Under the pieces are notes generated by a model. That model saw only the letters and a list, made by a program, of their open reading frames with translations, searched no databases and was not told the origin of the DNA. From positions 145,892 through 209,891 of the forward strand of contig JAPDQV010000001.1 of the NCBI GenBank assembly GCA_034505495.1: a stretch of DNA of 64,000 nt, read 5' to 3'. This DNA comes from Candidatus Zhuqueibacterota bacterium. GTDB taxonomy: Bacteria > Zhuqueibacterota > Zhuqueibacteria > Residuimicrobiales > Krinioviventaceae. Positions 1-52,832 of the stretch are shown here, in pieces (the stretch's first letter is position 1; each line of letters opens with the position of its first letter). The translations under genes were made by a program, and so were the position numbers.

Positions 1-2469
1 CAAACGACGTTTGATTTAAACGGTGAGCGTCTCTTGGACGGCCGCGGCAAGTCCTTGCCGCTCAGCGTAATGACTCGAATGAGGTTGGATTTTTGCCATC
101 AAAGGTTGGAGATCGATTCGCTGGCTTTTGCAGTGCAGGATGTTTCATGGTTCAGTCTGTCGATGGTAGTGGACAGTCTGCTCGGCATGCCGACTTTAAC
201 GGGATACCTGCTTCACGGCGCCGTTCCTTTGCAGCAGTTGGTCGACATTGCATCTCTAATTTTCCCAAAGGGCAACATTCCAGACCTCTTTCTTCACAAT
301 CCCAAGGCGGTCGTTGCAATCGACAGCTTGACGTTCAGGGGCAAGTTTGGTGAAGAACAGGCGGCGCTGGACTGGACGGCTTCCTTATCGTTGAAAGATG
401 CCGGAGTGACGGCCGATCGTGGAAATCTTTTCCTCGGAGGCCTGAATCTTACTGCGGTTATGCGGGGTGCCGTGCGAGAACAGACGATTGCGCAGGCTGA
501 TTTGCGGGTTTCTGCCGTCTATGATTCTGCTTCAGTCCGACTTCCGGAGTTGACGCCGCTTTATACAGGACCCTTGACTCTTGCTGCAGCCATGTCTATA
601 GGTCGAGACGGCTTTCCTGCCGACCTCGAGGCAAAGTTGACTGTTCGCAATTTGTTGGGGGCAAACGCAGCGGCATCCCTTCGGTTAAGCACCCCTCAGG
701 AACTGTCTCGCGCACACGGAAATGCGGTTATTCGAGTCGATGGTTTTGATTTGTCGCAACTTACCGGCGCTCAATGGGTTGGAAATGTTTCTGCTGAAGC
801 GGGTGTGGACATTCGCTCTCTTGATTCTTTGCGCTTCGAGGCAAAGGTTACCACGGATACGCTGACAGCCATTCAGGAAGGTCAGCTTTATGTTATGGCG
901 CCGATGACGGTCAAATCGGCTGCGCGCGGCGCCTATCATCTCGATGATAACCGCTTGGAGCTCAGAGCATTAGACTTTTCGCTCGATCCTTTCCTCCGCG
1001 CCGAGCTGCGAGCGGATTTATCACTTCAAGATTCGTCTGCGGTTTTACATCAATTTTCTGTGGCAATGGACCACGCGGCTCTTTTCGAAAAGCTGCCGAA
1101 CGCCCTGAATGAACAAATTCCGGGTGCCGGCCTAAGTGGCCGAACATCGTTTGAGGCAGGCGGCCGATTCAAGTTGTCGCCCGATCTGTTGCCGAAAGAA
1201 TTCGAAGTAAAGGCTGTGCTGCAGTCACGAGCAGATTTATCGCTACCCGCGCAGGGTGTAAAAGTCAAAGACCTTTTTGCCGAAGGCGAGCTCGTTGCGG
1301 ATTCCCGACGCGGAGGATTCATGCAGTTTGCCGTCGCACTGGACACAACGCGCTTCCTATTGCCGAATCCTCTCTCGTTTCGAGACAATCGCCTGCTGAT
1401 TCGGCTGTCGATGCCGAATCTCTCCACGATTAGTCTGGATACCGGATACGTTTCGATTCCCGATTTGCACACCTTGGGCGCCGTCAGCGGCCGTATTGAG
1501 AATTTAACCACGCATCCTTTTCTCTCGCTCAAGGCCTCGCTGCGTCAATCGGCTGAGGACACGTTGATTTTTGCCCCGGAGGTCTTTTTCAAAGGCATTA
1601 ATGAAATCGACCTGAATATTCGTGCAGATTCCAGTCATGCGGTTTTGAATGCATCGGTTCGGACCAAGGATCTCAGCGTCTACATGCCGAACGACATTCG
1701 CATCGATCGTTTGAATGCCGACCTTGCCTTTTTACAGGAATTTGATTTCGTAAATCCATCGCGTTTGGGGAGGTCTCCTGCAGTTGTGCGCACGCCATCG
1801 GACGGACTTGTCGATTACCTTCTCTATCGCAATTATTACCAAAGCTACCCCAATAAAAGCCGCCTCAGCATTAGACGAATTCAGATCGGCTCTTATCAGG
1901 TCGAGAATGTGCTGTCGGATATTTTTCTTGGCAACGGTAGGCTCGAAATCCCCTACTTTGCATTGGATGCCTACGGCGGCAATATTGCCGGTCAATTTTC
2001 GCTTTCCGCCGGAGAGAAGGATCCTTTGGACGCTTCTTACAAATTGACGGCTCATATTTCTTCCATCAATTCGTCGCTGTTGCTGCCGTCTGCCGCTTCC
2101 GAGAAAAGCAATATTACCGCACATGCCGAGTTGCGCGGCCGCGGGTTGGATATTAATAAGGGCATCGATTTGGACGGCTACTTTAATATCTCGGAGATCG
2201 AGTCCAAGGTGGCCGATAATCTTTTGCGTTCTCTGGATCCGGAAGGAAAGGATTCGGGAATCCGCAGTACGCGGTTGCTTATCAACCGCGGATTCAAACC
2301 CAAGCTTTTTCGCTTTGAGATTCGGCATGGGTTCTGTTATCCGGCAGTTTATTTTCAGCAGCCTTGGTATTTTCCGGTTCGTCTGATCGGCGGCGGCATT
2401 GAGCTGAGCCGCATACCGATCGTCACCCTGCTCAAACTCAATCCCAATTTAGCACGGAGTTTCAAATGA
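1..2469 (+). CDS. AsmA-like / YdbH-like large envelope protein (5' end lies upstream of window)
   Basis: Frame is open from nt 1 (no stop before the listed TTG at 34); >811 aa, repetitive beta-rich sequence without recognizable enzyme motifs; stop overlaps start of downstream YnbE/YdbL-like lipoprotein gene (ATGA at 2466-2469), mirroring the E. coli ydbH-ynbE-ydbL gene order. Confidence 0.4.
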   Translation, partial: QTTFDLNGERLLDGRGKSLPLSVMTRMRLDFCHQRLEIDSLAFAVQDVSWFSLSMVVDSLLGMPTLTGYLLHGAVPLQQLVDIASLIFPKGNIPDLFLHNPKAVVAIDSLTFRGKFGEEQAALDWTASLSLKDAGVTADRGNLFLGGLNLTAVMRGAVREQTIAQADLRVSAVYDSASVRLPELTPLYTGPLTLAAAMSIGRDGFPADLEAKLTVRNLLGANAAASLRLSTPQELSRAHGNAVIRVDGFDLSQLTGAQWVGNVSAEAGVDIRSLDSLRFEAKVTTDTLTAIQEGQLYVMAPMTVKSAARGAYHLDDNRLELRALDFSLDPFLRAELRADLSLQDSSAVLHQFSVAMDHAALFEKLPNALNEQIPGAGLSGRTSFEAGGRFKLSPDLLPKEFEVKAVLQSRADLSLPAQGVKVKDLFAEGELVADSRRGGFMQFAVALDTTRFLLPNPLSFRDNRLLIRLSMPNLSTISLDTGYVSIPDLHTLGAVSGRIENLTTHPFLSLKASLRQSAEDTLIFAPEVFFKGINEIDLNIRADSSHAVLNASVRTKDLSVYMPNDIRIDRLNADLAFLQEFDFVNPSRLGRSPAVVRTPSDGLVDYLLYRNYYQSYPNKSRLSIRRIQIGSYQVENVLSDIFLGNGRLEIPYFALDAYGGNIAGQFSLSAGEKDPLDASYKLTAHISSINSSLLLPSAASEKSNITAHAELRGRGLDINKGIDLDGYFNISEIESKVADNLLRSLDPEGKDSGIRSTRLLINRGFKPKLFRFEIRHGFCYPAVYFQQPWYFPVRLIGGGIELSRIPIVTLLKLNPNLARSFK

Positions 2470-3008
2470 CAAGAGCTTTTTGCCTTATCGTTTTGTTTAG
2501 CCTGTGCGCGGCCTGCAGCATCAAAACGCCGGAAATTACGCTCACTGGTGAAAAGACGGCGCTGGAAAATCAGATCATCGGTTCGTTCGAACAGTTGAAC
2601 CAACAGGATTATTTGACGACCTCGGTGCGGACGGCATTATCGGATGAGGCGGTGACCGGCAAAACCGAATCAGTGATCCAGGCTCTGCAGAACCAACAGT
2701 TCATTCAGGACGAAATTGATGAACTCAAACGTGATAAAGTCATCGGTGAAAACAATTCCGGATATCTGGAAATATTGGGGAACGAAAAATATCAAAAAGA
2801 TCCGTTGTATCGGAAACAGGTGGATCGATTGGTGGAAGAGGAAAACAACAATCGACGGATAATTTATCAAAAAGCGGCGATGAGTGCGGAGTGGAGCACC
2901 TCCACGGCTTCCGCATTGGCAAAGCTTCAACAAGAAAAGGCCGCGCCGGGAACCATGATCCAGCTGGAAAGCGGCGAATGGATCGAAAAACCCAGGCCGA
3001 AAAAATGA
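2466..3008 (+). CDS. lipoprotein, YnbE-like N-terminus fused to YdbL-like (DUF1318) domain
   Basis: Lipoprotein signal MTRAFCLIVLFSLCAAC with lipobox; C-terminal region with GYLE-type motif and overall resemblance to small periplasmic YdbL/DUF1318 proteins; translationally coupled to upstream and downstream genes. Confidence 0.45.
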   Translation: MTRAFCLIVLFSLCAACSIKTPEITLTGEKTALENQIIGSFEQLNQQDYLTTSVRTALSDEAVTGKTESVIQALQNQQFIQDEIDELKRDKVIGENNSGYLEILGNEKYQKDPLYRKQVDRLVEEENNNRRIIYQKAAMSAEWSTSTASALAKLQQEKAAPGTMIQLESGEWIEKPRPKK

Positions 3009-6000
3009 TGCAGCGATTTACTGTTATTTTCATTTTTACCTTTTTGCTGTCAGGGGCTGTTTGGTCTGAACAAACAAACGGAGGTGCAAAGGGTCCGGTG
3101 GAAGAGGTCTATCAGGTGACCAGCCATCCGGAAGCCGACTTGGCGCCGCGCGTTTCAACGGACGGGAAATGGCTTGCCTATGTCAATCGGCAGAGCGGCA
3201 ATTACGATATTTATATTAAAAATTTACAGACGGGAAGAAGCCGCCGTCTGACCGATCACGAAGCGGACGACTATCACCCGGTTTGGGATAAAAAAAATCG
3301 TTATCTGATCTTTGTCTCGCAGCGAAGCGACGCCAAAGGCGACCTTTTTCGCCTCAATCTGCGTAATGTACGCGGCGAGTTGATCGCCAAAGGCAAACCG
3401 GAACGGCTGACGACCTATATGGGGTTCGACGGCCTGCCGACCATTTCTGAATATGATGAACACATCGCCTGGGTTTCCGATCGGACAGGCCGACCGGAAA
3501 TCTGGCTGATGACTAAGCGGGGCCAGGCGATTCGTCAATTGACGCACGGCGGAGCAACACATCCGGCCTGGAGTCCCAAACAGTCCTATTTGGCTTTTAC
3601 CAGTTTTCGTCAAGACGGCAGCAACGGCGATATCTGGCTCATCAATCTCTATGCGCCGCGCGAGTGGATCGAGGTGAGGACGCCGCTGGACAGCCTTGAG
3701 CGTCCGATGTGGCCTGTAACACGCGGTGAAGCCGCTGACGGCTTTCCAACTTGGTCCCCTGATGCCAAGACGATTCTTTTTTGCCGAAGTGATCACGACG
3801 ATAACGGCGACGGGCTGATCACTCCCTCTGATCGCTCGGTAATTTGGGCTGTCGACGTTTCGCATCTGCCGCAGGACCATCCTTCTTCCTTGAATCCTTC
3901 TTATCGCCTCTACCGCGAAACGTTCGATGAACGAATCGTTCACCGTGCCTGCCCGATTGTATCGGCTAAATACAATGCCGCGCAGCCTGAATACGGTATG
4001 GACGGCCGCATTTATTTTTCGTCCGAAATCAAAGGCAATTTTGACATCTTTTCACTGCCGGACAGCCTGCTGCATGGTCATCCGCCGTCTATCGATGACA
4101 TGCCTCCGCTGCCTAACGGACTGGCTGCCAAGGATTTGTCGATCTTTATTGATGAGCCGCCGGTGTGGAACGAAAGGCAACGGCGTCAGCTCTATGATCG
4201 AATTTATACCCTGCAAAGGATCATGGACAGTCCTCAGGCCGATGCGGAACAAATTGCCGGTGCTGCCTACGAGATCGCCGTATGTTCGCTGCTGTTGGGA
4301 GATTCGCTGCGCTGCGTGCGTCATCTCGATTTTATTCTCGCCGATTATCCTGCCTCCGAGGCGGCTCCATTTGCCGAGCTTTTGCGGACCAGGGTTTCCG
4401 AGGTACGCAAAGAAAATGAGGCGCAGAAACTGCGACTTTTGGAACAGGAGATCCTTCGCCTTCAGGCCGGCGCTGCACCGAGCCGTCGATTCGCCGCCGA
4501 ATCAGAGCTGCTCCTTGGTGCTCTTTATGAACGACAAGAAAGATTTGAAGATGCAGAAAAGGCTTATCGGCGGGAAACGGAAAAGGCGCAGGCTTTTCCG
4601 GATCTTGTCGGTGAGGCCCTGCTTCGTCTCGGACGTTTGCAAAAAACCGAAGGCAAATACGGTGACGCAATGGCCTCTTTTTTGTCGGCCATGAAAAACG
4701 GCGGCAAACCGGAAAAGCATGCCCAAGCACGCAGTGAACTGCTCGAAATGTTCACCCTCGGTGCTGCCGATGATGCAACGCTGCTCTCGCGCTATAAAAT
4801 GGTGATCCGCCGGTTTTTTGCCCTCGATGTTTTCGTCATTGAGCCGTTTTTGCGAATCGCGGAATTGCATGTGCGAAACGGCAGGCTGCAGGAAGCATTG
4901 GATCTCTATGACTTTCTCCAGGCCCAGTTTGCCGATTTGACCGACGAAGCCTTTGACATTCGCTTAGGACGGGCGCAGGTGCTCTATCGGCTGGGAGATT
5001 TGCAGCAGGCGGCAACCCTCTTGAGCGAAACGGCCGCACTTTATCGCCAAAATCGGCCCAAATTGGCCAAGCAGGCCGAAACGCAATTGACCGATATGCT
5101 CTACCACTCGGCTTTAGACCTGATGACGACTAATCAATACGGTCAAGCGGCCGCAAGGTTGAAAAAGGTGCTGGAAATCGATCCGCATCATTTGCCGGCG
5201 CATCAGAGCTACATCGAATGCGCATTTTTGCTCAATCAAATCGATCAGGTGTTGACGGAATATACTGAAGCCGTCCGGAATCATCCCGAAGATAACATTC
5301 TTCTCTACGCTCAGGGATTGGCTTATTCCTATAAAGGTGCCTCGATCTATCCGAATGGTTGTGAAACTTGGGTGACCAGTGCGGAGGCTTTGGAGCAATC
5401 GAATCAAATTCTCTACAAAGCGCTGGCCTTGGATTACAATCTAATCGATGCCTACCTGCTGTTGAGTTTCAATTCCGAACTATTGGAATCTTTTCAGAAT
5501 CGGCGACAGCGGGAAGCCAAAAGTTTTGCGCAAAAGGCTTTCGGTACAATCACGGCGCCGTTGGTTTGGCTTTATCACACAGTCACCTTTTACGAAGAAA
5601 CTAAACCGCCGAGATATTATGAAAGTGCCATTCAGGAGCTCACCCAGGCGATGGCGCTCAACGACGAAGAGCTCTATCCACGGCGCGAGGCGCTTCTGGC
5701 GCTCAATATGGCCAACAATTATTACAGCCTGGGCGAATTCGGGTTCCGCAAGGCTTATGAGTACTATCACACTTTTTTAAAGTATGACTCGACTTTTGCC
5801 GGTATGCCGCACGAGGCGTTAATCAAAGAACGGATGGGGCACTGTGCCATCTTTGTCAACGATCAGCTGCGGGGACCCAACTACCTCAAGCGGGCTATCG
5901 AGTTGTATGGTAAATTGAACAATCAGGAACGTCTTCTGCTTAATCTCAAACGGCTCGCTTTGCTCTATGAGGTCGGGGAAAATCATAGCGAGGCCTTACG

Positions 6001-9000
6001 GTATTATTCAGCAGCCGCGGAGATGGAAGAACGGCTCGGGCGCTATGACGGTCTGTTGCGCAGCCGGCGCAGCGCCGCTTTGCATTACTATGCTTTGGGA
6101 CGATATGAGGAAGCGGTTAGGTCTGCTGAGGAGGCTTTGAGCATGCTCGAAAGCGGCCAGGTCCCGCGAAAAAAGAGTAAACCCATTTATCTTCAAATCG
6201 GATTGCTCGATCTTTACGCCCCCATTCCTTTCGATCTCCGCAAGGTCGGTGCCAAATCGACCATCGATATTTCGACTGAAGAAGAGGAAGCTTTTCTCTA
6301 TACGATTCTTGCTAAAGTTTTTATCGAAAATAAAGATTTCGATCGCGCCATCGAATTCTATCAGAAAAAGTTCGACCTTTATGAGCGGCGCCACGATTAC
6401 GACGCCCAGGCTGTTTTTCAAAACAACATGGGCTATCTCTATTTTCTCAAGGGTGATTATGACAACGCCTGGCGCATGTTCACCAATTCTTATTGGTGGT
6501 GCGTGCGCACCAAATACGTTTATGGCCAGCTGCTGAATTTGGAAAATGCAGCGCAAGTGGTCCTTACGATCGCAAATGAAGAAGATCCGAAACGAAAAGT
6601 TAATTTTGCCAAATATCATCGCTGGATAATCGGCAAGCTGACCGATCTTTTACGAGTCACCCGAGGCGATGAGGCCTTTTATTCGGCGATTCATGCCCGT
6701 TATCGTCTCCTTCTAGCGGATTTACTGATTGTTCCCTATGCCGAATTGCCGAAGAATCTGGAGGCGCGATGGTCGTTTCTTGAAGCGGTCGGCAATGCCG
6801 AAAAGCATCTGATGGAAGCGGAGCGGCTCAGCCGACAGTATCGTCTGCCGCGTGAAGAGTGCGCGGCGCTTTATCGACGGGCAGAGTTGCGGCTCCAAAC
6901 CGGCGACTCGACGGCGGTTTCTTTGTATCTTAGAGCCAAAGAGACGGCGGAGCAGCATCAACTGCGCGATCTTTTGCGACAAATCTATACGGCGCTCGGC
7001 AGTGAAAGCATGAGATTATCTGAAAGAACAGATAACTCTTTGGCGGATGCATCCTTTTATTTGCAGGAGGCCGTGCGATTGACCGAACGGGAGGCTCCTT
7101 CGAACCTGCTTTTATCGGCTGTGCAGGTGCGGCGTCTCATCGAAGCGCCTTATCGCCGTCTCATTCAGCTGCAGGCGGAACGCGGCGATGCGGAGAATGC
7201 GCTGCTGACGGCGGAAAGGATGCGCAGCCAAGTTTTTCGGCAATTGATGCGACGAGACCGTCCGAGTCTCGGGGGAGAAACGGAGCAACGACTTTTTCAT
7301 AGAGCGGACTCTTTGGCCGAGGAGCTGCGCCGTCAAACTGAGCAGGCGAATCGAACTCGTACGAACGACGCAGTCTTGGCTGAAGAGATCGAAAGGTTGC
7401 AGCGTGAATACGAGGCGGCCTTGACTGTCGTTAGGCGCAAAGCGCCGCAGCTTGAGCCGTTTTTACGGCCGGTCAACATTTCGTTGGCTGAACTGCAAAG
7501 CAGACTTGAGCCCAAAGAAGGGCTGCTTACAATTCTTTATCTGCAGGATCAGCTGCTGTTTGGTTGGATAACACGCCGAAACATCGAATTGTACCGACCG
7601 AATTTAGCTGCTTCAAACTTTCGAAAACTTTTGGTTCGTTTACGGGATGGTTTCGAAGCCGATTCGTTGGACGCGGCCGCGGCGGACAGCATTAAAACGG
7701 CCTTTTCCATTTTACCCCTTCAAGGGATCAAACGTTTATACATTCTTCCTGAGCACAAGGATCTGCCTTTTCCTTGGAGTGCATTGTTTCATCTTGTCGA
7801 TTTTCCAACTGTTGCAGGGGTTATTTCTGATTTATCGGCCTTTTTCCCGCCTGGAAAAACAGATCGCTTACCCTCGTTAACGATCTTGAGTTCCGATTCT
7901 CTGCTGCTGCAGGCTCTGCAGAAGCGGGACAGCCTCGTCGTCTCGCCGCTGCCGTCCAAGGCGTCTGACCGCATTGACGCAGCGGTGGTACATTTGCGCG
8001 GAAACAGCCTCGCTCAACCGGTCTTTCCGACCAACAGCACGTTTTCCGCAGCTTGGGCGGGGAAGTGGTCGCCGCTCGATTTACTGCGTGGAAAAGCTTC
8101 TTTAACCCTGCTCTGCTTGGATATTGATAAGGGAGAGTGGACGGCTGAAGCGCTGAGTGCTTGGGAGCGAGCGGCTTATTTCAATGGAACCCGCCGGCTT
8201 TTTGTCTCCTTATGGCCGACAGCCGACAGCAGTCGAACCTTTCTGCAAAGCTGTTTTCGTTATTTGCAAAACAACTTGCCCTCAGCGGCTTTGGACACAA
8301 CCCAGGAGCAAATGGTCGAAAAAGGTGTTCCGTTGCGTTTTTGGGCGGGATTTCAAATCTACGGCGTCGAATCAGGTTCGACTGCAGAAGCGCCGATGAG
8401 CAGCGATGCAGATGAGTGGGTTGCGCGGGGTGATGAGGCGCGGCGGGCACGAAACTGGCGGCATGCTGTGGAATGCTACCTCGAAGCTTTAGAGAGAACG
8501 CAAGCAGAGCGGGAAAAGAATGAGTCGATAGCCGAAAGACTCTTGGCAAGCGCCTTGAGCGGCGGTCTGTGGACCGAGGCGGTTGATGTTGTGCGCCGTC
8601 GAGCATCTTATTACTCCCAAAAGAACTTGCGCCGTGAACAGGCGGCAATGCAGAGGCTTATGGCGGTCGTTTATCATCAGCAGGGGGCGACGGCCGGCGA
8701 GGCGCAGGCGTTAGCCGAATATAGACGGCTTTGCCGCACTTTTTCCATTCCTTACGACGATGCGACGGCTTTTTTCGAAACGGCTCAGCTTTACGCAGAC
8801 AACGGCGACTATGAGCAGGCCGCGCTTCTTTCCATTAAAGCGGCCGAACGGTACGGCAAACTAAACCGCACGCGAAATCAGATTGAAAGCTTACTGAGGG
8901 CCGCAGAATATTTATTCGAAGAGACAGGTTATGTCGATTTGGCGATCGATTTGGCGGAATCGGCTGAACAGCTGAGTAAAAATAACCAGCAAATGGATTT

Positions 9001-11167
9001 GCAGGCAAGGGCTTTGACTTTTTTAGGGCGCTGCCGCTTTGGAGTTGACGCAAATAAAGCACGACAATCCTTGCAATCGGCTTTAAAGCTTGCTGAGAAA
9101 GGGGGATTCAAGCGCCTTGCGGCGGAAATTCGCTTGTCGATGGCGGAGCTGCATCTCAGGACCTTCGAACCCATGGCTGCCGAGCGATTTCTTGTCCAAA
9201 TCGAGGTCGCCGAGCTGGATCCGGCTCTCAAAATAGCGCACCATCTGCTTATTGCACGACAAGCGAGAGCGGTAGGCGATACTGCGAAAGCTGCAGCTCT
9301 TTTGCGCAAAGCTTTTCTCGAGGCGGAATGGTCGGATGATGCGGATTTGGAACAACGGGTAGGCGAAGCTGTTGCCGTTCATGCCGCGTTATCCGGCAAA
9401 GCGGCTAAGGCGGCAGAAGAGATGAAACGATCCGTTCGCCTTGAAAGCCGCCCCTTCAACCGTTCGGCAATACGCCGACGTACAGCCTTGGCTTTATTCT
9501 TATATCTGGCAGGAAAAACCGAAGAGGCGAAGAGCGAGGCTAAAGAAAATATCGGTGCTTGCGATCGTCCCTATTTATATGATTTTCGCTCTGCCAATAA
9601 CTGGCTGCTGAGCTGTCTCGAAGAGGATGCGGCGCTTTCCAGGCAATTTGCAGAAGCAGCGGCATCTGCAGCGCAACGCATCGGTCGCTCGGATCTCCTC
9701 TTTCGCGCCTATTATCGCTTGGCACAACTAGCGGAAGAAGATGATAGGGCTCATTTCTATTTAGTCGCAGCCGACTCGGCGCTCAGCCTTGCCCCGCCGC
9801 AAAGCGAGTACGACGATTATTTCCTAGGGCTGCTGCCGCTGGAGCGACGGTTTTATCAAACCGCGGTCAAACTATGTGTGCGCAGCAATCGGTTGCACGA
9901 TGCGCTTGTTTTCGCTGATCAGCACCGAAATATCGATTTTATTCACGCCGCAAGGCTGCGGCTTTTTTCCTTCAAGGCTGACGACCGGCAGCAGGCCGAG
10001 CACTATTTCCGGATCAAAGAGCGATTATCAAGACTCTACTCAAGCGCAATGTTTCAATGCGACCCGCGTTCCATCTTTGCCGCAAAAGATTCCCTAATCG
10101 TGAAACGGCAAATCTCTGCCCTGCAGGACTCTCTGAGGTCGCTTAAAGAAACCTGCCGTTTTCAAGATCCTCAATTGGGTCCGCTGCTTTTCGGGTTGAG
10201 CGGCTGCCGTGAGGCAAGCCCGCTCGCCGATGGTCGGCTGCTGATCTCGCTTTACCATGATGATGAAACCCTCTACATTTGGCGGCGCCGCGAGGATCGC
10301 CTCGACGTAGACCTGCAGCCCTATGACGCGGTGCAGACAAAGAATGTCCTAAAAACGCTGCAGCAACTAGACCTCAACGCCGATGCCGGAGATTTTACCC
10401 GTCTTCTTTATGCAACGGTGTTCGAACCTTGGCAGCAGGACGTCGAACAAGCGCGCAGAATCGTTATCGTTCCCTATTCCCAATGGCACTATGTGCCGTG
10501 GGCTATGTTGAATGACAAGAGCGGTACCTTCCTCGGCCTCGAGAAACCAATTTCACTCGCGGCATGGTCGTTCGAAGCGGAAAAAAAGGAATCCTTAACA
10601 GCTGCCTGGAATTCAAAACGGCTTATTCTGGTTGGAAAACCACCCTCGTCGCAACAAGATCCCTTTTATAAGCCCCTTGCCCGAGCCTTGGAACGGTATG
10701 CTGAAGAGTCAATTGTGCTTTTGCCGGATCGACTCCAGACCGCTTCACTTGGCGGATCGGTACTTGTTGCTGAGAGTTTGGATGAGAATTCACAGGAAGC
10801 CTGGCTTTATCAGCCGGAAAGCGAGTCAGGTTATCGCAATATGGCCTGGCCGGATTGGATGCAGCAGAGCGAACCGCCCTATGCCGTCGTTTTTTTGCGG
10901 ACCCGTAATTCGGAGCCGCAAGAAGGCACCGAAACGGCCGTTGCAGGCGCTGTCGCTTCATATCTCGGCTCCGCGCTGCTTCTGCCCTTGCCGTTAAACG
11001 CCGATGCGTTTGCTGCCGCCATTTTGGTCAAGCGTTACGTAAAGATGCTCAGCGAAGGACTTTCCCCTTCGGAAGCCCTCAATTCGGCACAACGAGCCGT
11101 TTACGACCGGCTTGATCGTCGTCCGAAAGCTTGGGGCTGTTTTGTTCTCTATGATGTTGGTCGATAA
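3005..11167 (+). CDS. giant (about 2720 aa) secreted PD40 beta-propeller / TPR / CHAT-domain protein with two CHAT (caspase-like) domains
   Basis: In-frame ATG at 3005 overlapping upstream stop (TGA 3006-3008); signal peptide MMQRFTVIFIFTFLLSGAVWS; N-terminal TolB-like PD40 repeats (YHPVWDKKNRYLIFVS, THPAWSPKQSYLAFTS, DGFPTWSPDAKTILF); long TPR-rich middle; CHAT signatures (see domain features). Confidence 0.8.
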   Translation: MMQRFTVIFIFTFLLSGAVWSEQTNGGAKGPVEEVYQVTSHPEADLAPRVSTDGKWLAYVNRQSGNYDIYIKNLQTGRSRRLTDHEADDYHPVWDKKNRYLIFVSQRSDAKGDLFRLNLRNVRGELIAKGKPERLTTYMGFDGLPTISEYDEHIAWVSDRTGRPEIWLMTKRGQAIRQLTHGGATHPAWSPKQSYLAFTSFRQDGSNGDIWLINLYAPREWIEVRTPLDSLERPMWPVTRGEAADGFPTWSPDAKTILFCRSDHDDNGDGLITPSDRSVIWAVDVSHLPQDHPSSLNPSYRLYRETFDERIVHRACPIVSAKYNAAQPEYGMDGRIYFSSEIKGNFDIFSLPDSLLHGHPPSIDDMPPLPNGLAAKDLSIFIDEPPVWNERQRRQLYDRIYTLQRIMDSPQADAEQIAGAAYEIAVCSLLLGDSLRCVRHLDFILADYPASEAAPFAELLRTRVSEVRKENEAQKLRLLEQEILRLQAGAAPSRRFAAESELLLGALYERQERFEDAEKAYRRETEKAQAFPDLVGEALLRLGRLQKTEGKYGDAMASFLSAMKNGGKPEKHAQARSELLEMFTLGAADDATLLSRYKMVIRRFFALDVFVIEPFLRIAELHVRNGRLQEALDLYDFLQAQFADLTDEAFDIRLGRAQVLYRLGDLQQAATLLSETAALYRQNRPKLAKQAETQLTDMLYHSALDLMTTNQYGQAAARLKKVLEIDPHHLPAHQSYIECAFLLNQIDQVLTEYTEAVRNHPEDNILLYAQGLAYSYKGASIYPNGCETWVTSAEALEQSNQILYKALALDYNLIDAYLLLSFNSELLESFQNRRQREAKSFAQKAFGTITAPLVWLYHTVTFYEETKPPRYYESAIQELTQAMALNDEELYPRREALLALNMANNYYSLGEFGFRKAYEYYHTFLKYDSTFAGMPHEALIKERMGHCAIFVNDQLRGPNYLKRAIELYGKLNNQERLLLNLKRLALLYEVGENHSEALRYYSAAAEMEERLGRYDGLLRSRRSAALHYYALGRYEEAVRSAEEALSMLESGQVPRKKSKPIYLQIGLLDLYAPIPFDLRKVGAKSTIDISTEEEEAFLYTILAKVFIENKDFDRAIEFYQKKFDLYERRHDYDAQAVFQNNMGYLYFLKGDYDNAWRMFTNSYWWCVRTKYVYGQLLNLENAAQVVLTIANEEDPKRKVNFAKYHRWIIGKLTDLLRVTRGDEAFYSAIHARYRLLLADLLIVPYAELPKNLEARWSFLEAVGNAEKHLMEAERLSRQYRLPREECAALYRRAELRLQTGDSTAVSLYLRAKETAEQHQLRDLLRQIYTALGSESMRLSERTDNSLADASFYLQEAVRLTEREAPSNLLLSAVQVRRLIEAPYRRLIQLQAERGDAENALLTAERMRSQVFRQLMRRDRPSLGGETEQRLFHRADSLAEELRRQTEQANRTRTNDAVLAEEIERLQREYEAALTVVRRKAPQLEPFLRPVNISLAELQSRLEPKEGLLTILYLQDQLLFGWITRRNIELYRPNLAASNFRKLLVRLRDGFEADSLDAAAADSIKTAFSILPLQGIKRLYILPEHKDLPFPWSALFHLVDFPTVAGVISDLSAFFPPGKTDRLPSLTILSSDSLLLQALQKRDSLVVSPLPSKASDRIDAAVVHLRGNSLAQPVFPTNSTFSAAWAGKWSPLDLLRGKASLTLLCLDIDKGEWTAEALSAWERAAYFNGTRRLFVSLWPTADSSRTFLQSCFRYLQNNLPSAALDTTQEQMVEKGVPLRFWAGFQIYGVESGSTAEAPMSSDADEWVARGDEARRARNWRHAVECYLEALERTQAEREKNESIAERLLASALSGGLWTEAVDVVRRRASYYSQKNLRREQAAMQRLMAVVYHQQGATAGEAQALAEYRRLCRTFSIPYDDATAFFETAQLYADNGDYEQAALLSIKAAERYGKLNRTRNQIESLLRAAEYLFEETGYVDLAIDLAESAEQLSKNNQQMDLQARALTFLGRCRFGVDANKARQSLQSALKLAEKGGFKRLAAEIRLSMAELHLRTFEPMAAERFLVQIEVAELDPALKIAHHLLIARQARAVGDTAKAAALLRKAFLEAEWSDDADLEQRVGEAVAVHAALSGKAAKAAEEMKRSVRLESRPFNRSAIRRRTALALFLYLAGKTEEAKSEAKENIGACDRPYLYDFRSANNWLLSCLEEDAALSRQFAEAAASAAQRIGRSDLLFRAYYRLAQLAEEDDRAHFYLVAADSALSLAPPQSEYDDYFLGLLPLERRFYQTAVKLCVRSNRLHDALVFADQHRNIDFIHAARLRLFSFKADDRQQAEHYFRIKERLSRLYSSAMFQCDPRSIFAAKDSLIVKRQISALQDSLRSLKETCRFQDPQLGPLLFGLSGCREASPLADGRLLISLYHDDETLYIWRRREDRLDVDLQPYDAVQTKNVLKTLQQLDLNADAGDFTRLLYATVFEPWQQDVEQARRIVIVPYSQWHYVPWAMLNDKSGTFLGLEKPISLAAWSFEAEKKESLTAAWNSKRLILVGKPPSSQQDPFYKPLARALERYAEESIVLLPDRLQTASLGGSVLVAESLDENSQEAWLYQPESESGYRNMAWPDWMQQSEPPYAVVFLRTRNSEPQEGTETAVAGAVASYLGSALLLPLPLNADAFAAAILVKRYVKMLSEGLSPSEALNSAQRAVYDRLDRRPKAWGCFVLYDVGR
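3110..3850 (+). other. PD40/TolB-like beta-propeller repeat region of giant protein
   Basis: Three or more repeats of the W-S-P-D/hydrophobic PD40 pattern separated by about 45 aa, immediately after signal peptide. Confidence 0.6.
7700..8370 (+). other. CHAT domain 1 (apparently catalytically intact caspase-like protease domain)
   Basis: LYILPEHKDLPFPWSALF (substrate-groove motif), AAVVHLRGNS (catalytic His), LTLLCLDIDKGEW (catalytic Cys), C-terminal RRLFVSLWPTAD...RFWAGFQIYGV matching CHAT consensus ...slW.v.D....WA.F.l.G. Confidence 0.65.
10450..11164 (+). other. CHAT domain 2 (degenerate, His and Cys positions substituted)
   Basis: RIVIVPYSQWHYVPWAML ... AWGCFVLYDVGR matches CHAT N- and C-terminal motifs, but the His position reads VLVAESLD and the Cys position reads AVVFLRTRNSEP (no Cys). 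Confidence 0.5.
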
Positions 11168-11193: not shown

Positions 11194-12930
11194 GTGAAAC
11201 CGAGAGTTATTGGCCTGCTTTTGCTGTTTTTCCGACTTGCGGAGGCCCAAACGCCGCTGCTTCAGATAACCTTTCCGGCTCAAAACGATACGGTAAACGG
11301 TAACCGAGTTCGAATTTCCGGATTTACCGAAAGCGGAGCCGTTGTTTCGATCAATGGCAAAAAAGTACCGTTAACACCTCAGGCTTCTTTTGTTGCCCGC
11401 GTTGATTTGTCTGAAGGATTGAACACAATTCTCGTCGAAGCACAAAAAAACGGAGCCGTATCCGTTCAGAACCTGTCGGTTTATCGTCCGCCGTCGACCA
11501 AGTCCCTGCCTGAAAAGCCCACGGCGATCGACTTGGACGGGTGTGCGCCGCGCCGCGATGTTTGGCTAAGCGTCGGTGATTATCTCGATGTTCAGCTTAA
11601 AGGCAGCCCTAACGGTGTTGCCGCCTTTTCGATCGACCGCTATCTCAAGCACCTGCCGATGGTAGAAATCGATACCGCTTTGACTGACGGAATTTTCGGC
11701 ATATATCGCGGAGCAATCCGTATTAGTTCCGATCTCCCTATTGATAAACCGCTGGCCATCGAGGGCGAGCTGCTGGGAGCCGACGGGCGCAAAAAAAAGC
11801 TGGTGATCGGACGCTTGTTCGTGCTTTCGCCGCATGTGCCGCTGATCGGCCGGACCAAGCAAACGGTGACTGTTCACAGCGCTGCGGAGGGGTATGTTCC
11901 TTGGTTGCGTCTTCCGGCCGGAATCGATTTGCACATCGTCGGCAAGCGGAATAACCGCTATCAAGTTCGTTTTTCAGCAACGAAGCAAGGTTATATCGAA
12001 GAGGATGGAATCGAGTTGTTGCCGGCGGGTACGCCCCTGCCGTCTTTAGCTGTCGGCGCTCCAAACTTGGTTCAGGATAAAAATTGGATCCGGCTGATTT
12101 ATCCGGCCGACCGGCTGCCGGCCTTTTGGATCGATCAAGATCCTGTCCTTAATCGTCTCGACTTGTATCTCTTCGGAGCTCGGCAGGCTTCGCACTGGGT
12201 GACGTTTCCCAACGGAGAAAGCGACCTTGCTGCGCTGGTCTTTGGACAGGAAGACAATGCATTTCGAACTACGGTCGTTTTGCGGACCAAAAGGGTATGG
12301 GGATATAAAGCAGAGTATCGCGACGGCGCCGTCGTTTTTTCCATACGCAGGCCGCCGGTAATCAATTCGCAGAATCCGCTGCAGGGGTTGGTGATCGCCG
12401 TCGACGCCGGACACGGCGGTCAGGATCGAGGCGCCGTGAGCCCCCTCGGCAGATTGGAAAAAGAGATCAACCTTATGTGGGCCGAAAGCCTTGCCGCCAA
12501 ACTGAGGAGCAACGGCGCAACCGTGGTCATGACGCGACGGGAAGACATCGAGGTCTCTTTGGCAGAACGCATACGTCTGGCCGAGGAAGCCGAGGCTCAT
12601 ATCTTTCTTTCCCTGCACAACAACAGCGTGCCGGCGACCGGCAATCCGGCTGCCGAGGGCACGAGCGTTTATTTCACCACGCCGCAAAGTCGTGACCTGG
12701 CCTGGGCTCTTTATCCTTACCTGGTCAAACTGGGTCTGGCGCCCTTTGGCCGCGTCTATAATGCCTACTATGTAACGCAATCAACGGCGTTTTTGAGTGT
12801 GCTCATCGAAGGAGGATTTCTCAGTAACCCAAAAGAGGAACTCAAGCTGGCGGATCCTGTTTTTATCGACAGGTTATCGCAGGCAATTTGTGAGGGATTA
12901 GCGGATTTTTTGTCGACTGGAGAAAAATGA
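11194..12930 (+). CDS. N-acetylmuramoyl-L-alanine amidase (Amidase_3, AmiC-like) with N-terminal Ig-like/unknown domains
   Basis: GTG start; signal peptide; C-terminal Amidase_3 motifs VIAVDAGHGGQDRGA ... SLHNNS ... EGGFLSN; 26 nt downstream of giant CHAT gene. Confidence 0.85.
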   Translation: MKPRVIGLLLLFFRLAEAQTPLLQITFPAQNDTVNGNRVRISGFTESGAVVSINGKKVPLTPQASFVARVDLSEGLNTILVEAQKNGAVSVQNLSVYRPPSTKSLPEKPTAIDLDGCAPRRDVWLSVGDYLDVQLKGSPNGVAAFSIDRYLKHLPMVEIDTALTDGIFGIYRGAIRISSDLPIDKPLAIEGELLGADGRKKKLVIGRLFVLSPHVPLIGRTKQTVTVHSAAEGYVPWLRLPAGIDLHIVGKRNNRYQVRFSATKQGYIEEDGIELLPAGTPLPSLAVGAPNLVQDKNWIRLIYPADRLPAFWIDQDPVLNRLDLYLFGARQASHWVTFPNGESDLAALVFGQEDNAFRTTVVLRTKRVWGYKAEYRDGAVVFSIRRPPVINSQNPLQGLVIAVDAGHGGQDRGAVSPLGRLEKEINLMWAESLAAKLRSNGATVVMTRREDIEVSLAERIRLAEEAEAHIFLSLHNNSVPATGNPAAEGTSVYFTTPQSRDLAWALYPYLVKLGLAPFGRVYNAYYVTQSTAFLSVLIEGGFLSNPKEELKLADPVFIDRLSQAICEGLADFLSTGEK

Positions 12931-13677: not shown

Positions 13678-14115
13678 TCAACCTTTGAAAATCGTAATTC
13701 TGACACGCGAAGAGCCCGGTAAAAGAATGGGAATGTTGACACCCGATTGCACTTTGAAGGGATTGGGAAACGGTTCGAGAAGTTCGGGATATTGCCAAAA
13801 ACCGGGCTCAAAGTGCGACTGATTGTTTTCTCCCGGGCTTCCGCCCTTAATGGCTGTTATGATTTCCTGTTGCTGCCAGTCTTTGATTTCCAACACGACT
13901 ACATAATCGCCGGGTTCAACGTACTGTTTGTCCTCATTTTTCCCGTCCCAATAAAATACATATTTTCCGCCGTCAATTAAATAATCATCGATCAATAGAA
14001 TTACTTTTTGCGCCGATACCGGATTTTTGCACGACACCAAAAGGCAAAAAACCGGCCAGATCAGAACGCGTAAGAGTGTTCGGGACGGCTTTATTCCGAT
14101 GTCTTTGCGAGCCAT
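13678..14115 (-). CDS. lipoprotein with FlgD Ig-like / T9SS-like C-terminal domain
   Basis: Lipoprotein signal ...VFCLLVSC; YVFYWDGKNEDKQYVEPGDYVVVLEI followed by PFPNPFK...RVRITIF; start overlaps 3' end of S9 peptidase gene. Confidence 0.45.
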   Translation of the reverse strand: MARKDIGIKPSRTLLRVLIWPVFCLLVSCKNPVSAQKVILLIDDYLIDGGKYVFYWDGKNEDKQYVEPGDYVVVLEIKDWQQQEIITAIKGGSPGENNQSHFEPGFWQYPELLEPFPNPFKVQSGVNIPILLPGSSRVRITIFKG

Positions 14116-16136
14116 TTTTCCAACCAGGCAAATACTTCGTTCCACCACAACCGGGCGTTTTGCGGTTTGGTCACAAAATGCGTCTCATCAGGAAAACAAA
14201 TCAGTTTGGACGGCACGCCGTACCTCTGCAGGGCGGTGAACATTTGCAGGCCCTGCGTCACCGGAACACGAAAGTCGAGTTCTCCATGGATGACCAGCGT
14301 CGGCGTTCGAAACTTGTTCAGGTTCGCCGCATAGGTAGAAGGCGACCAGCGCCGGTAAAGATCGGGATTTTCGTATGGGATACCGCCGAACTCCCATTCC
14401 GGAAACCACAGCTCATCGGTGGCGCCGTATTTGCTGACGAGATCAAAAACACCCGCATGGCTGACCAAAGCTTTGAAGCGGTCGGTCTGTGTAGCGATCC
14501 AATTAATCATGTAGCCGCCGTAGCTTGCTCCCGCCGCGGCAATGCGCTCCTTATCGATAAAGCTGTAACGCTCGACCACATAATCGATGCCCGCCAGAAT
14601 ATCTTGATAAGGCCCGCCGCCCCAATCGCGACTGACGGCGTCGCACCACTCCTGACCGTAGCCTTTGGAACCGCGTATGTTCAAAGCAACCACGACAAAG
14701 CCGCGCGATGCAAATAGTGACGTGTTCCAGCGATAGTGAAAATCATCGCCCCACATTCCCTGCGGCCCCCCGTGGATGAGGCAAAGCAGCGGATATTTTC
14801 GGGAAGTATCGAAAGCCGGCGGCTTTAGTAGGAAGCCGTGAACCGTCTTGCCGTCAAAAGAAGGATAACTCAGATCTTCCAATGGGGTTAAATCCAATTG
14901 ATCGAGCAAAGGCTGATTGGTAAAAGTGAGTTGTGTCGGCGATTTGTTGCGCAGATCATAGCCGAAAATTTCCTCCGGCATAACGGCGGATTGGCGTTTG
15001 AAGAAGAGGCGGCGACCGTTCGGGCTAATTGTTAAATGACGATTGACGTGATCGCCGATGATTTTCGTGATGCGCCCGGATTTCAATTCCAGGCGATAAA
15101 TAGATTCGCGGCCGAAATCCTCGGCGGTAAAAAAGAGGGCCGAGTTATCGGGAGACCAAATCACCTGGCCGACCGAGCGATCGAAAGAATCCGTCAGCGA
15201 TACGCTGCTTCCGGTTCGACGATCATAAAGCATCAGCTCGTACTCGTCGGCTTCGAAGCCTGGGCGCCGCATGGCGCGGTAGGCAAGATAGCGACCGTCG
15301 GGAGAAAAGACCGGCTGATTATCGACCGCTGCGTTGGCGGCCGTCAGATTTTGTTGGATGCCGCTTTCCAAATCGAGTAGAAAGACGTCATTGTTGGTGT
15401 TGACGGCCGGCTCCGCCGTTGCATTGCCGACAAAGGCGATCGTTTTTCCGTCAGGTGAGAAACAAAAGTCGGGATCACCGCCCAAATCAAGCGGCGGCAC
15501 GTCCCAATCGCCCGGCGTGAGATCGCGGAGGTTGGCGCCGTCGGCATTGCAGAGGAACAGATGCGATCGTCTGCCGTCGCGCCAATGATTCCAAGGTCGA
15601 AACAAGAGGCGGTCGGCAATGTGCGCCTTAACAAGCGATTCCTCTCTCACGCGCTCCATTGCCGCGCTTTCTTCTATATTTGCGGCTTTTGGAAAAATTG
15701 AAAGGATCAGCGCCAGATGTTTGCCGTCAGGAGACCAGGCAAAATCCTCAATATCCAAAGGCAGGCGGGTCAACTGCACTGCTTCGCCGCCGGAAAGGGG
15801 CAAAAGGAAGATCTGCCGCGAGCAGTTGCGGGAAGAGAGAAAGGCTACCGCGCTGCCGTCCGGTTTCCAATGCGGCGTACTGCTGCCCGCAGCATGAGTG
15901 GTAAGCTGACGCGTCTCGCCGGTTGCCGTGTCGAGGAGCCAAAGGTCGGTACGGCCGCTGTTTTTTTCCATGTCGTAAGCGGTCATTTCGTAGACCATTC
16001 GGCTGCCGTCCGGGGAAAGTTCGATTCGGCCGATGCGCTTCATTGCCCAAAGGTCTTCAACGGTCATCGGGCGTTTGGCCGGCAGCGAAGCAGCCGAAAG
16101 GCTCACGAGCAGGAAAAAAGATATCAGCATGCGCAT
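14091..16136 (-). CDS. S9 family serine peptidase (prolyl oligopeptidase/acylaminoacyl-peptidase type) with N-terminal PD40 propeller
   Basis: Signal peptide; PD40 repeats; catalytic GASYGGYM (GxSxG) and alpha/beta hydrolase C-terminus. Confidence 0.85.
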   Translation of the reverse strand: MRMLISFFLLVSLSAASLPAKRPMTVEDLWAMKRIGRIELSPDGSRMVYEMTAYDMEKNSGRTDLWLLDTATGETRQLTTHAAGSSTPHWKPDGSAVAFLSSRNCSRQIFLLPLSGGEAVQLTRLPLDIEDFAWSPDGKHLALILSIFPKAANIEESAAMERVREESLVKAHIADRLLFRPWNHWRDGRRSHLFLCNADGANLRDLTPGDWDVPPLDLGGDPDFCFSPDGKTIAFVGNATAEPAVNTNNDVFLLDLESGIQQNLTAANAAVDNQPVFSPDGRYLAYRAMRRPGFEADEYELMLYDRRTGSSVSLTDSFDRSVGQVIWSPDNSALFFTAEDFGRESIYRLELKSGRITKIIGDHVNRHLTISPNGRRLFFKRQSAVMPEEIFGYDLRNKSPTQLTFTNQPLLDQLDLTPLEDLSYPSFDGKTVHGFLLKPPAFDTSRKYPLLCLIHGGPQGMWGDDFHYRWNTSLFASRGFVVVALNIRGSKGYGQEWCDAVSRDWGGGPYQDILAGIDYVVERYSFIDKERIAAAGASYGGYMINWIATQTDRFKALVSHAGVFDLVSKYGATDELWFPEWEFGGIPYENPDLYRRWSPSTYAANLNKFRTPTLVIHGELDFRVPVTQGLQMFTALQRYGVPSKLICFPDETHFVTKPQNARLWWNEVFAWLEKWLAKTSE

Positions 16137-16141: not shown

Positions 16142-16846
16142 CTACCTGTCGATGTTTTTACGAAAATCAGCGATGGCTTTTTCGAGTCCCACGAGAACGG
16201 CTCGGGAAACGATCGCCCATCCGACATTGTACTCCTCGATCAGTTCTGCGGCATCGGCCAATTCGCGGGCGATCGGGGCTGTAAGTTTCCGTCCCGCTGA
16301 AACGCCCAGTCCCAGCTTTCCGGCCGCTATGGCCGAAGAGCGGAATTGCTCCACGATATCCGCCATGGTGCCCAAATCGTCAATGCCGGAGAAAACAGAC
16401 GTATCCAACTGCACATAATCGACCTGAAGGCGCGCCGCATTGCGAATGGCCGACGGATCAGGGCGAATGAGCTGCGCAACGACAATGTTGCTGTCGCGCA
16501 GCTGTTCCACCAATTCCTGCAAAATCGGCGCCTGTTCTTCAGGACTTTCTTCTCCGGCAGCGTAGCTTTGCGGCAGCAACGTCACCATATCCGGTGCCCA
16601 GGAGACGGCTTTGCGCACCATGGTTTCTTCCGCCGGAACGGCGATATTGAGGTGCGTCTGCACCACCTCCTTGAGGAGCCGAACATCGCGGTCGGAGATT
16701 TCTCCCGATTCATCGACATAAACGACAATGCCGTCGATACCGGCCGCTTCTGCAGCCACGGCCGCGGTGACCGGATCCGGGTTGCGGCCTTTTTTGATCG
16801 CCCGAATACGGGCAATCGGATTGATGCAGAGACATAATCGAGCCAT
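16142..16846 (-). CDS. pdxJ: pyridoxine 5'-phosphate synthase
   Basis: LCINPIARIRAIK-GRNPDPV ... EYNVGWAIVSRAVLVGLEKAIADF pattern colinear with PdxJ (LGVNIDHIATLR...ELNIGHAIIARAV). Confidence 0.75.
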   Translation of the reverse strand: MARLCLCINPIARIRAIKKGRNPDPVTAAVAAEAAGIDGIVVYVDESGEISDRDVRLLKEVVQTHLNIAVPAEETMVRKAVSWAPDMVTLLPQSYAAGEESPEEQAPILQELVEQLRDSNIVVAQLIRPDPSAIRNAARLQVDYVQLDTSVFSGIDDLGTMADIVEQFRSSAIAAGKLGLGVSAGRKLTAPIARELADAAELIEEYNVGWAIVSRAVLVGLEKAIADFRKNIDR

Positions 16847-16867
16847 ACGCTTTCCTTTCGAGTTTCC

Positions 16868-17968: not shown

Positions 17969-17972
17969 CGAT

Positions 17973-18578
17973 TCACTGCCCGAAACGGGCTTTCAAGAGA
18001 CTCCAAGTCGGCAAATCGCCGGTCGAATAATCGATCCATTTGGCGATGTACCAAATTTGATCTTCAGATCGAATAAAGTGAAATTCGGCCTGACCGCGGA
18101 AAACGTGCGGACAGTTGGGCTCGCTGCACTTGTAGTGAACGGTCAGCTCATAATTCTGCAGCAAGACGACGGAATCTTGATAGACGGTTTCGTTCAGACG
18201 TTCAAATGACAACTTTGCAGTCGAGTCCTTCGGCACGTAAGAGAAAAGCTGATTCAGGTAATTCGCCTCTTCTTCTTTACCCCAGCGACTGAATAGAGCG
18301 GGATAAACGTTTGCAACTGCCGGGTCCGCAATAAAAGAAAACGATCGTTTTGCCGTCGAGCTGTCCGACAGGCAGCGCAGATAATTGCTCCGATTCTTTT
18401 CCGAAACAGCGTTGCGCAGATTGATTAACACGTAGGTCGGCGAGACCGGCTGGATCCAATTGGACTGCGTCTGCTTAGGCGGCTCCGGTTCCCGCGTGGC
18501 AAACGGATTGTCGCACCCCGCCATTCCCAATACAATCCACAAAGCGGTCAATTGCAGATGCATTTTAGGGTTAAGCAT
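17973..18578 (-). CDS. hypothetical lipoprotein
   Basis: Lipoprotein signal with lipobox LGMAGC; no recognizable domain; 5-nt gap to downstream deacetylase gene. Confidence 0.5.
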   Translation of the reverse strand: MLNPKMHLQLTALWIVLGMAGCDNPFATREPEPPKQTQSNWIQPVSPTYVLINLRNAVSEKNRSNYLRCLSDSSTAKRSFSFIADPAVANVYPALFSRWGKEEEANYLNQLFSYVPKDSTAKLSFERLNETVYQDSVVLLQNYELTVHYKCSEPNCPHVFRGQAEFHFIRSEDQIWYIAKWIDYSTGDLPTWSLLKARFGQ

Positions 18579-18709
18579 GATTAAATATATCGGAAACGTT
18601 ATCCATTTTCAAGGTCTATTTATCGATTCCTTGAAGCGTAAAATCAAATAAAAGCAGATCAACCTGGATAATGATGAACTTGATTTTCTTTGTCAACGAG
18701 CCGCTCACC

Positions 18710-19094: not shown

Positions 19095-19178
19095 GTCCGT
19101 CTGACCTCAAGTTACATAACGAAAGAAATTGCAAATCGTGCGGCTGAACGGCCCGCCTCAAAGCTTTAGATCCGGTTC

Positions 19179-19349: not shown

Positions 19350-19369
19350 GTGAAAAACTCCCTATGCGC

Positions 19370-52669: not shown

Positions 52670-52832
52670 AACCGGAGGAGTTGGTTCCACCTTTTTAACG
52701 TAAGTAAATCATTGCATTTTTCAAATACAAAAGAAAAAATTCTTGGGAAATGACTAGAATCTTTATTCTTGAGTTTATCGGTGCAATTCAATATTTTGTT
52801 TTACTAAAATTTGGAACCGTATCGGGGATAGA

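Follow-up and report, generated by a model that had tools for sequence, protein, structure and literature searches.

Among the characterized proteins that join a tetratricopeptide repeat (TPR) solenoid to a caspase-like CHAT domain, two are closest to the subject of this study: TPR-CHAT/Csx29 of the type III-E CRISPR system (Craspase), whose catalytic dyad is H585/C627 (PMC9729208), and DdvA, a transmembrane anti-sigma factor of M. xanthus with a solved periplasmic TPR-CHAT domain (PDB 8rot; PMC11506125). Among envelope systems, the nearest described arrangement is the E. coli ydbH-ynbE-ydbL operon, where YdbL, a periplasmic DUF1318 protein, modulates the YdbH-YnbE lipid bridge and the periplasmic protease DegP sets the YdbL level (PMC13464000; PMC11126948). 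We analyzed a 64,000-nucleotide stretch of a Candidatus Zhuqueibacterota genome (GenBank assembly GCA_034505495.1, contig JAPDQV010000001.1, positions 145,892 to 209,891), hereafter the window, which carries a giant gene for a protein with a PD40 beta-propeller, long TPR regions and two CHAT modules (CHAT#1 and CHAT#2). Both modules lack the catalytic dyad, and in the majority of related loci the giant gene directly follows a gene for a DUF1318 lipoprotein. All coordinates below are those of the window unless stated otherwise; homologous proteins are labelled P0001 onward and loci L001 onward.

The giant gene (3005..11167, plus strand) is a single uninterrupted open reading frame (ORF), in a frame that is open from 2891 to the stop codon at 11167. 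Translation from the ATG at 3005 gives 2,720 aa; the NCBI gene model starts from the ATG at 2978 and gives 2,729 aa. P0001, a 2,729-aa model from a candidate division KSB1 metagenome-assembled genome, has the same sequence and is annotated there as "tetratricopeptide repeat protein". The GC content of the gene is that of its flanks. The ATG at 3005 overlaps the stop codon of the upstream DUF1318 gene as ATGA, which is the usual sign of translational coupling.

The plus-strand gene encodes, in order, a predicted Sec signal peptide (3005..3067, aa 1-21), a PD40 beta-propeller (3092..4204, aa ~30-400; Pfam PD40 E 3.7e-34 over six stretches), a first TPR solenoid (4292..7354, aa ~430-1450; matches to TPR_12, TPR_2, TPR_1, TPR_16 and TPR_19), CHAT#1 (7388..8374, aa 1462-1790), a second helical/TPR region (8402..10114, aa ~1800-2370; a weak TPR_16 match) and CHAT#2 (10112..11164, aa 2370-2720). 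The first solenoid contains a family-specific TPR core (5372..6034, aa ~790-1010) with the motifs LNDE, NLANNYYNLGEFGF, ERMGHCA and NxKRLALLYE. This core has the top column conservation in an alignment of 44 full-length orthologs, and by this measure the TPR core, not the protease, is the most conserved part of the family. In the second helical region we also noticed a HEPN_AbiV Pfam match (8753-8899, aa 1917-1965), which scores 21-24 bits with a cut-off of 27.1 and is probably spurious. A reading of the same DNA made from the letters alone (the sequence-only reading) had described a single 2,720-aa gene at 3005-11167 with a PD40 propeller, about 1,000 aa of TPRs and two CHAT modules; the continuous ORF confirms the gene, and Pfam, hhalign and AlphaFold2/Foldseek confirm the architecture.

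Membership of the CHAT family is supported by several types of comparison. The entire protein scores 60.6 bits with the Pfam CHAT profile (PF12770, clan CD caspase-like peptidases; cut-off 24), and both segments exceed the cut-off individually: CHAT#1 with 27.9 bits, matching only in its last 80 residues (aa 1713-1787), and CHAT#2 with 48.5 bits. When the two regions of the 44-ortholog alignment were compared profile against profile (hhalign), they matched each other over 345 columns with a probability of 100% and E 2.4e-41, so that the two modules are, by their profiles, mutually homologous internal duplicates. AlphaFold2 predicts a CHAT fold for both, with pLDDT 86.4 and pTM 0.84 for CHAT#1 and pLDDT 77.5 and pTM 0.81 for CHAT#2. 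In Foldseek searches of the PDB with these models Csx29/TPR-CHAT ranks first (E 7.5e-11 for CHAT#1 and 6.3e-11 for CHAT#2; template modelling scores 0.60-0.64), followed for both modules by DdvA and separase. Single-sequence phmmer searches of the PDB with either CHAT segment gave no meaningful match, and a profile of dyad-bearing orthologs was required.

The state of the catalytic residues was established by alignment to such orthologs. Proteins of about 30% identity (P0016-P0050, except P0039) carry the dyad motifs LFSCHG and MSACETG in CHAT#2. The profile of these dyad-bearing modules matches TPR-CHAT/Csx29 PDB chains (E 2.4e-7), and in it the His of SCHG and the Cys of SACETG align to residues 585 and 627 of 7x8a_D. 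In the giant protein the corresponding columns of CHAT#2 hold Ser2591 (His column) and Thr2633 (Cys column), and no Cys occurs between residues 2402 and 2711. The catalytic columns of CHAT#1, transferred by the hhalign alignment, hold Asn1667 and Asp1708. Here the dyad is absent in all 44 orthologs, the Cys column is never Cys in these or in ~58 metagenome genes, and CHAT#1 contains no conserved Cys at any position. The sequence-only reading had placed a catalytic His (in AAVVHLRGNS) and Cys (in LTLLCLDID) in this module. These residues are His1663 and Cys1704. Both precede the catalytic columns by four residues and are located within beta strands (DSSP on the AlphaFold2 model), and Cys1704 is Cys in only 3 of the 44 orthologs and in 1 of 60 scored metagenome genes, the window's own; the assignment does not hold. 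His1663 (7991-7993) is conserved in 39/44 orthologs, though it is off the catalytic column and without a partner Cys. Neither CHAT module thus has the His-Cys dyad needed for an active peptidase; by alignment, CHAT#1 is dyad-less family-wide and CHAT#2 is dyad-less in the window's lineage. Since both modules lack the dyad, the giant protein is a predicted pseudoprotease and most likely not a protease.

By analyzing the distribution of the CHAT#2 dyad, we found that the proteins without it (P0001-P0015 and P0039) group as a single clade in a neighbour-joining tree. Among 45 complete genes, taken from the window, L001-L007 and the metagenome loci, 41 retain His/Cys, and the four without the dyad are the window, L001, L007 and L088. 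We further compared regional pairwise identity within the dyad-less clade and within the dyad clade. The propeller (0.58 in the dyad-less clade and 0.47 in the dyad clade) and the TPR core at aa 790-1010 (0.61 and 0.55) are similarly conserved in both, whereas identity falls from 0.43 in the dyad clade to 0.26 in the dyad-less clade for the second TPR region, and from 0.61 to 0.19 for the His-Cys core of CHAT#2. These regional identities suggest that the protease function was lost and that the N-terminal two-thirds of the protein are still constrained; constraint on the CHAT#2 region is, by this comparison, relaxed in the window's clade. The dyad would have been lost once in this clade, the C-terminal third would then have come under relaxed constraint, and the propeller and TPR core would have stayed as conserved as in the relatives. 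As the C-terminal CHAT module still has the dyad in most relatives, the family probably descends from a latent periplasmic TPR-CHAT protease, and only in the dyad-bearing relatives is proteolysis plausible.

Of the described CHAT proteins, TPR-CHAT/Csx29 is the best structural match and resembles the giant protein in joining a TPR solenoid to a CHAT domain with aligned dyad columns. However, Csx29 is a cytoplasmic protein of ~700 aa that has a single CHAT domain, keeps its dyad, binds gRAMP/Cas7-11 and is activated by RNA, whereas the giant protein is a predicted exported protein of 2,720 aa with a propeller, two CHAT modules and no dyad. The type III-E neighbourhood of gRAMP/Cas7-11 and Csx30/31-type genes was not found; the neighbours are AsmA-like, DUF1318, amidase, Lon, HSP20, TrkAH and similar genes, with no cas genes among the Pfam-scanned neighbours in the window and L001-L007 (CRISPR arrays were not explicitly searched). 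Separase likewise places a caspase-like protease after a large scaffold of helical repeats, but it is eukaryotic, cytoplasmic/nuclear and active. We considered whether CHAT#1 and CHAT#2 correspond to the pseudo-protease/active-protease pair of separase and rejected this, as the separase halves are two halves of one CHAT module.

Several features of the sequence suggest that the giant protein leaves the cytoplasm. The N-terminal sequence (MMQRFTVIFIFTFLLSGAVWS/EQ) combines a basic n-region with a hydrophobic core of 16 residues and with small residues (V, S) at positions -3 and -1, and cleavage is predicted after VWS (hydropathy and the -3/-1 rule); by hydropathy no further transmembrane-like segments are present. 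The leader contains no twin-arginine motif, and no C-terminal sorting domain of the type IX secretion system was found with Pfam, CHAT#2 reaching the last residue of the protein. Of 53 homologs longer than 2,300 aa, 50 likewise begin with a hydrophobic leader or a lipobox; the three leaderless exceptions, which start at the conserved motif QVTTHP, seem to be truncated gene models. The lipobox pattern is matched in the distant relatives P0054, P0056, P0057, P0058 and P0060, as well as in P0002. Given the family-wide leader, the lipoboxes of distant relatives and the translational coupling to a lipoprotein gene, the giant protein is very probably exported, in line with the secretion proposed by the sequence-only reading. 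In our interpretation it is a ~300-kDa exported, probably periplasmic scaffold.

Export of a CHAT protein is not unprecedented. The view that CHAT proteins are usually cytoplasmic, on which the sequence-only reading had built, is incomplete because the TPR-CHAT domain of DdvA is periplasmic (PMC11506125). DdvA is among the fold matches of both modules (E 1.8e-7 to 1.3e-5), and the profile of dyad-bearing orthologs matches 8rot_B (E 0.0049). On the other hand, DdvA combines a cytoplasmic zinc anti-sigma domain, a transmembrane helix and one CHAT domain with intact H862/C907, and it regulates a defence island, whereas in the giant protein a cleavable-type leader and a propeller are combined with two CHAT modules that lack the dyad, and a sigma-factor partner is missing. 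At its N-terminus the PD40 propeller comes right after the 21-residue leader, and no sigma-factor gene adjoins the giant gene, which does not correspond to an anti-sigma factor of the DdvA type.

The genes upstream of the giant gene are conserved neighbours. The 3' part (822 codons) of a gene for an AsmA-like/DUF748-like envelope protein occupies 1..2469 on the plus strand, in frame 1, open from the first base and crossing the 5' end of the window. It overlaps by 4 nt the plus-strand gene for a DUF1318 (YdbL-like) lipoprotein (2466..3008; Pfam DUF1318 49.4 bits, cut-off 27; leader MTRAFCLIVLFSLCAAC|S). Full-length orthologs of the AsmA-like protein have 981-1096 aa and an N-terminal hydrophobic anchor; the L002 ortholog matches Pfam AsmA with 38.8 bits (cut-off 29.8), and the window fragment gives only sub-threshold YhdP/AsmA matches. 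All DUF1318 orthologs beside the giant gene carry a lipobox and are lipoproteins, their mature N-terminus having the form CS[IV]KTPE..TGEKTALENQ. In the window and the L001-L007 orthologs this N-terminus reads C-S-[IV]-[KR]-T-P-E-[IV]-x-[LV]-T-G-E-K-T-A-L-E-N-Q. The best PDB match of the window's DUF1318 protein is E. coli YdbL (28oj_A), a weak one (E 0.16).

This arrangement resembles the E. coli ydbH-ynbE-ydbL operon in that a DUF1318 gene (the YdbL family) comes after an AsmA-like gene on the same strand and in tight packing. It differs in that the upstream protein has no match to the YdbH model, a separate ynbE gene is absent, the lipoprotein is the DUF1318 protein itself, and the third gene encodes a 2,700-aa TPR-CHAT protein that is absent from E. 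coli. The DUF1318 proteins here are ~60 aa longer than E. coli YdbL, and the extension might replace the role of YnbE. A YnbE-YdbL fusion as the source of the longer lipoprotein was also considered; the resemblance is confined to a 'TP.I' motif after the lipidated Cys and is too weak.

Conservation of this gene order was assessed in two sets of loci. In five of six annotated loci of relatives the order is AsmA-like/DUF748 (~980-1,096 aa), DUF1318 (~185-207 aa) and giant gene; one of these five is the locus of the very distant 2,628-aa P0054, in which the genes overlap. A metagenome scan with the family-specific TPR core yielded 66 loci, whose flanks were scored with custom hidden Markov models. 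The DUF1318 gene lies directly upstream on the same strand in 46 of the 62 evaluable loci and within 1.3-7 kb in eight more; the AsmA-like gene is upstream in 23/37 and downstream in 4/37. Adjacency of the DUF1318 gene to an AsmA-like gene is thus conserved. A dyad-bearing subclade (L101, L103, L105, L107, L112) keeps the DUF1318-giant pair, with no AsmA-like gene in the flank and the upstream genes on the opposite strand. At the P0049 locus (L004) the giant gene is flanked by genes for a Peptidase_C14 caspase, a PEGA-domain protein and an 820-aa TPR protein (L004 positions 5439-6473, 16502-17188 and 17285-19747), the last of which matches the giant protein at aa ~1865-2257; the DUF1318 and AsmA-like genes of this locus are a few kb off and not adjacent.

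Downstream of the giant gene, after 26 nt, is a gene for an exported N-acetylmuramoyl-L-alanine amidase (11194..12930, plus strand; Pfam Amidase_3 E 1.1e-38). No terminator-like site was found in the 26-nt gap, and the two genes are probably co-transcribed in the window. The amidase gene is downstream in 3 of 38 loci, all of them close relatives of the window, and is therefore a lineage-specific neighbour. Of the neighbourhood suggested by the sequence-only reading, the envelope genes upstream thus proved to be real and conserved partners, whereas the amidase is not a conserved neighbour and the YdbH family model (PF11739) finds no match in the upstream protein.

Taken together, we favor, with about even confidence, the interpretation that the giant protein is an exported, probably periplasmic pseudoprotease scaffold genetically tied to a DUF1318/AsmA-like envelope module. 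It shares the architecture of its family (predicted signal peptide, PD40 propeller, TPR solenoid, dyad-less CHAT, TPR and C-terminal CHAT), and the job it retained would be binding via the propeller and TPR core. Since the conserved partner is the DUF1318 lipoprotein, usually together with an inner-membrane-anchored AsmA-like protein, we infer that the giant protein acts in the same module, where it may physically interact with these partners and bind or organise the DUF1318 lipoprotein/AsmA-like assembly; dyad-bearing relatives may additionally cleave a component of this assembly. The analysis shows architecture, fold, missing dyad, clade pattern and synteny; localisation (from sequence features), contact with the partners and the scaffold role are inferred. 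Several points weigh against this interpretation. Synteny alone is no proof of a physical or functional link, and the AsmA-like gene is missing from the flank in 10/37 loci and the DUF1318 gene in 8/62. None of the five KSB1-type upstream proteins matches PF11739, with which E. coli YdbH scores 969.8 bits, and gaps of 0-35 nt between the AsmA-like and DUF1318 genes in the loci compared leave no room for a separate ynbE gene. The leader could be an uncleaved signal anchor. The degenerate His-Cys core of CHAT#2 was aligned at 19% identity, so the assignment of Ser2591/Thr2633 is less certain than the absence of any Cys. Finally, CHAT#2 is still an intact ORF with a confident CHAT fold and may hold an unseen function.

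A possible, though less than probable, alternative is that the protein is exported and catalytically dead, that the link to DUF1318/AsmA-like genes is inherited gene order, and that it works independently, e.g. as a TolB/CpoB-like periplasmic organiser of cell-wall remodelling together with the amidase. TolB is a periplasmic PD40 beta-propeller, and TolB models are the best NCBIfam matches of the giant protein; there is also a faint YbgF/CpoB match (E 0.0027), the amidase gene follows without a terminator-like site, and the region Lon-HSP20-TrkAH...giant is syntenic in several genomes, a sign that gene order is conserved in general. However, the TolB match (TIGR02800) reaches 105.4 bits with a cut-off of 343.15, involves the repeats only and misses the TolB N-terminal domain, and the CpoB match is likewise far under its cut-off of 90 bits. 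The rare occurrence of the amidase (3/38) also speaks against such an organiser, as does the DUF1318-giant pair, which persists where the other flanks differ (L005, L006, L103-L112) with junctions that overlap or are no longer than ~25 nt. It is quite unlikely that the C-terminal third is decaying, non-functional baggage in a gene heading for truncation. The low identity of the second TPR region and CHAT#2 (0.19-0.40 among the dyad-less proteins, 0.42-0.70 among those of the dyad clade) would fit such decay, but all 14 full-length clade members keep an uninterrupted ORF of ~2,700-2,790 aa, the last 75 residues retain the family motif AVLxKRFFxxLxEG...AL..AQ, and the fold of CHAT#2 is predicted with the pTM of 0.81 given above.

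The sequence-only reading had suggested regulated proteolysis or a conflict function, and neither is borne out. A periplasmic protease that still works through His1663/Cys1704 or other non-canonical residues could draw on the conservation of His1663 and on the two confidently predicted CHAT folds; it is nevertheless very unlikely given the mid-strand position of both residues four residues before the catalytic columns, the rarity of a Cys at 1704 and lack of any conserved Cys in CHAT#1, the Cys-free stretch of CHAT#2 and the fact that the CHAT#2 core is the least conserved region in the clade. Many characterized bacterial CHAT proteins act in defence, and Csx29/Craspase, SAVED-CHAT and DdvA are among the fold matches; this speaks for an effector of a CHAT-based abortive-infection or toxin system, located among envelope genes by chance. 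PADLOC, however, returned a generic TPR model only, Pfam revealed no cas, CBASS or toxin genes among the neighbours and the ten largest other ORFs of the window, and the chromosomal position is stable in relatives at 30% identity, to which the missing dyad and flank-like GC content can be added. Because of the generic PADLOC match, the housekeeping neighbours and the synteny across deep relatives, a defence role is unsupported, and we regard it as barely probable.

The family to which the giant protein belongs is small. An exhaustive search of 1.84 billion cluster representatives with the TPR-core profile found 90 proteins at E <= 1e-30, and ~68 of the best 150 match the entire TPR core at the expected position in proteins of ~2,500-2,900 aa; the family comprises ~70 clusters at 50% identity and is restricted to KSB1/Calditrichota-type bacteria. 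Names given to its members in the sources are generic only (CHAT domain-containing, PD40 domain-containing, TPR repeat protein, Tol biopolymer transport system component). A contig scan with the N-terminal PD40 alignment was uninformative, as the generic pattern SPDGKWLAY returned at least 80 TolB-like loci from unrelated taxa (L008-L087). Nothing relevant was found in the literature on CHAT with PD40 and TPR, on CHAT with AsmA, or on DUF1318.

Of the large ORFs scanned elsewhere in the window, most are housekeeping genes (UvrD-like helicase, MetH, ClC channel, SufBD and phosphoenolpyruvate carboxykinase), and none is a second CHAT gene. A fusion of an exported-type PD40 protein with a prolyl-oligopeptidase (Peptidase_S9) is encoded 3 kb downstream of the giant gene (14091-16136, minus strand) and is also present in L001 and L088. 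The UvrD-like helicase (26813-29986, minus strand) has an N-terminal extension of ~460 residues without a Pfam match. A minus-strand cluster at 48491-52690 includes a Ser/Thr protein kinase with PEGA, a sigma-54 activator with GAF and a CarboxypepD_reg-like protein. In the MetH-like B12-dependent methionine synthase (60870-63839, minus strand) the homocysteine S-methyltransferase match begins at profile position 132 at residue 2, a hint that the start was mis-called or that the N-terminus is split or truncated.

The assembly and regulation of AsmA-like bridge proteins is an open question in outer-membrane biogenesis. That a giant TPR-CHAT gene lies beside the DUF1318 gene at 46 of 62 loci, often accompanied by an AsmA-like gene, points to a coupling of this module with a dedicated caspase-like protease in some little-studied phyla. 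By analogy with the role of DegP for YdbL in E. coli (PMC13464000; PMC11126948), it can be speculated that the family is a periplasmic TPR-CHAT protease system for the AsmA-like bridge, in which dyad-bearing members would use their C-terminal CHAT to cut either the DUF1318 (YdbL/YnbE-like) lipoprotein or the bridge protein and thereby control assembly of the lipid-transport bridge, the protein of the window's clade having become a non-catalytic clamp. We consider this extended model doubtful; if true, it would represent a new regulatory principle in outer-membrane lipid homeostasis and a natural protease-to-pseudoprotease transition. We advise against annotating the giant protein itself as an active protease or a defence effector, or pursuing it as such. 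TPR-CHAT is a known kind of protein, and the interest of this family lies mainly in its undescribed link to AsmA-like/DUF1318 genes and in the natural loss of catalysis, for which the lineages that keep the dyad and the one that lost it offer a natural comparison.

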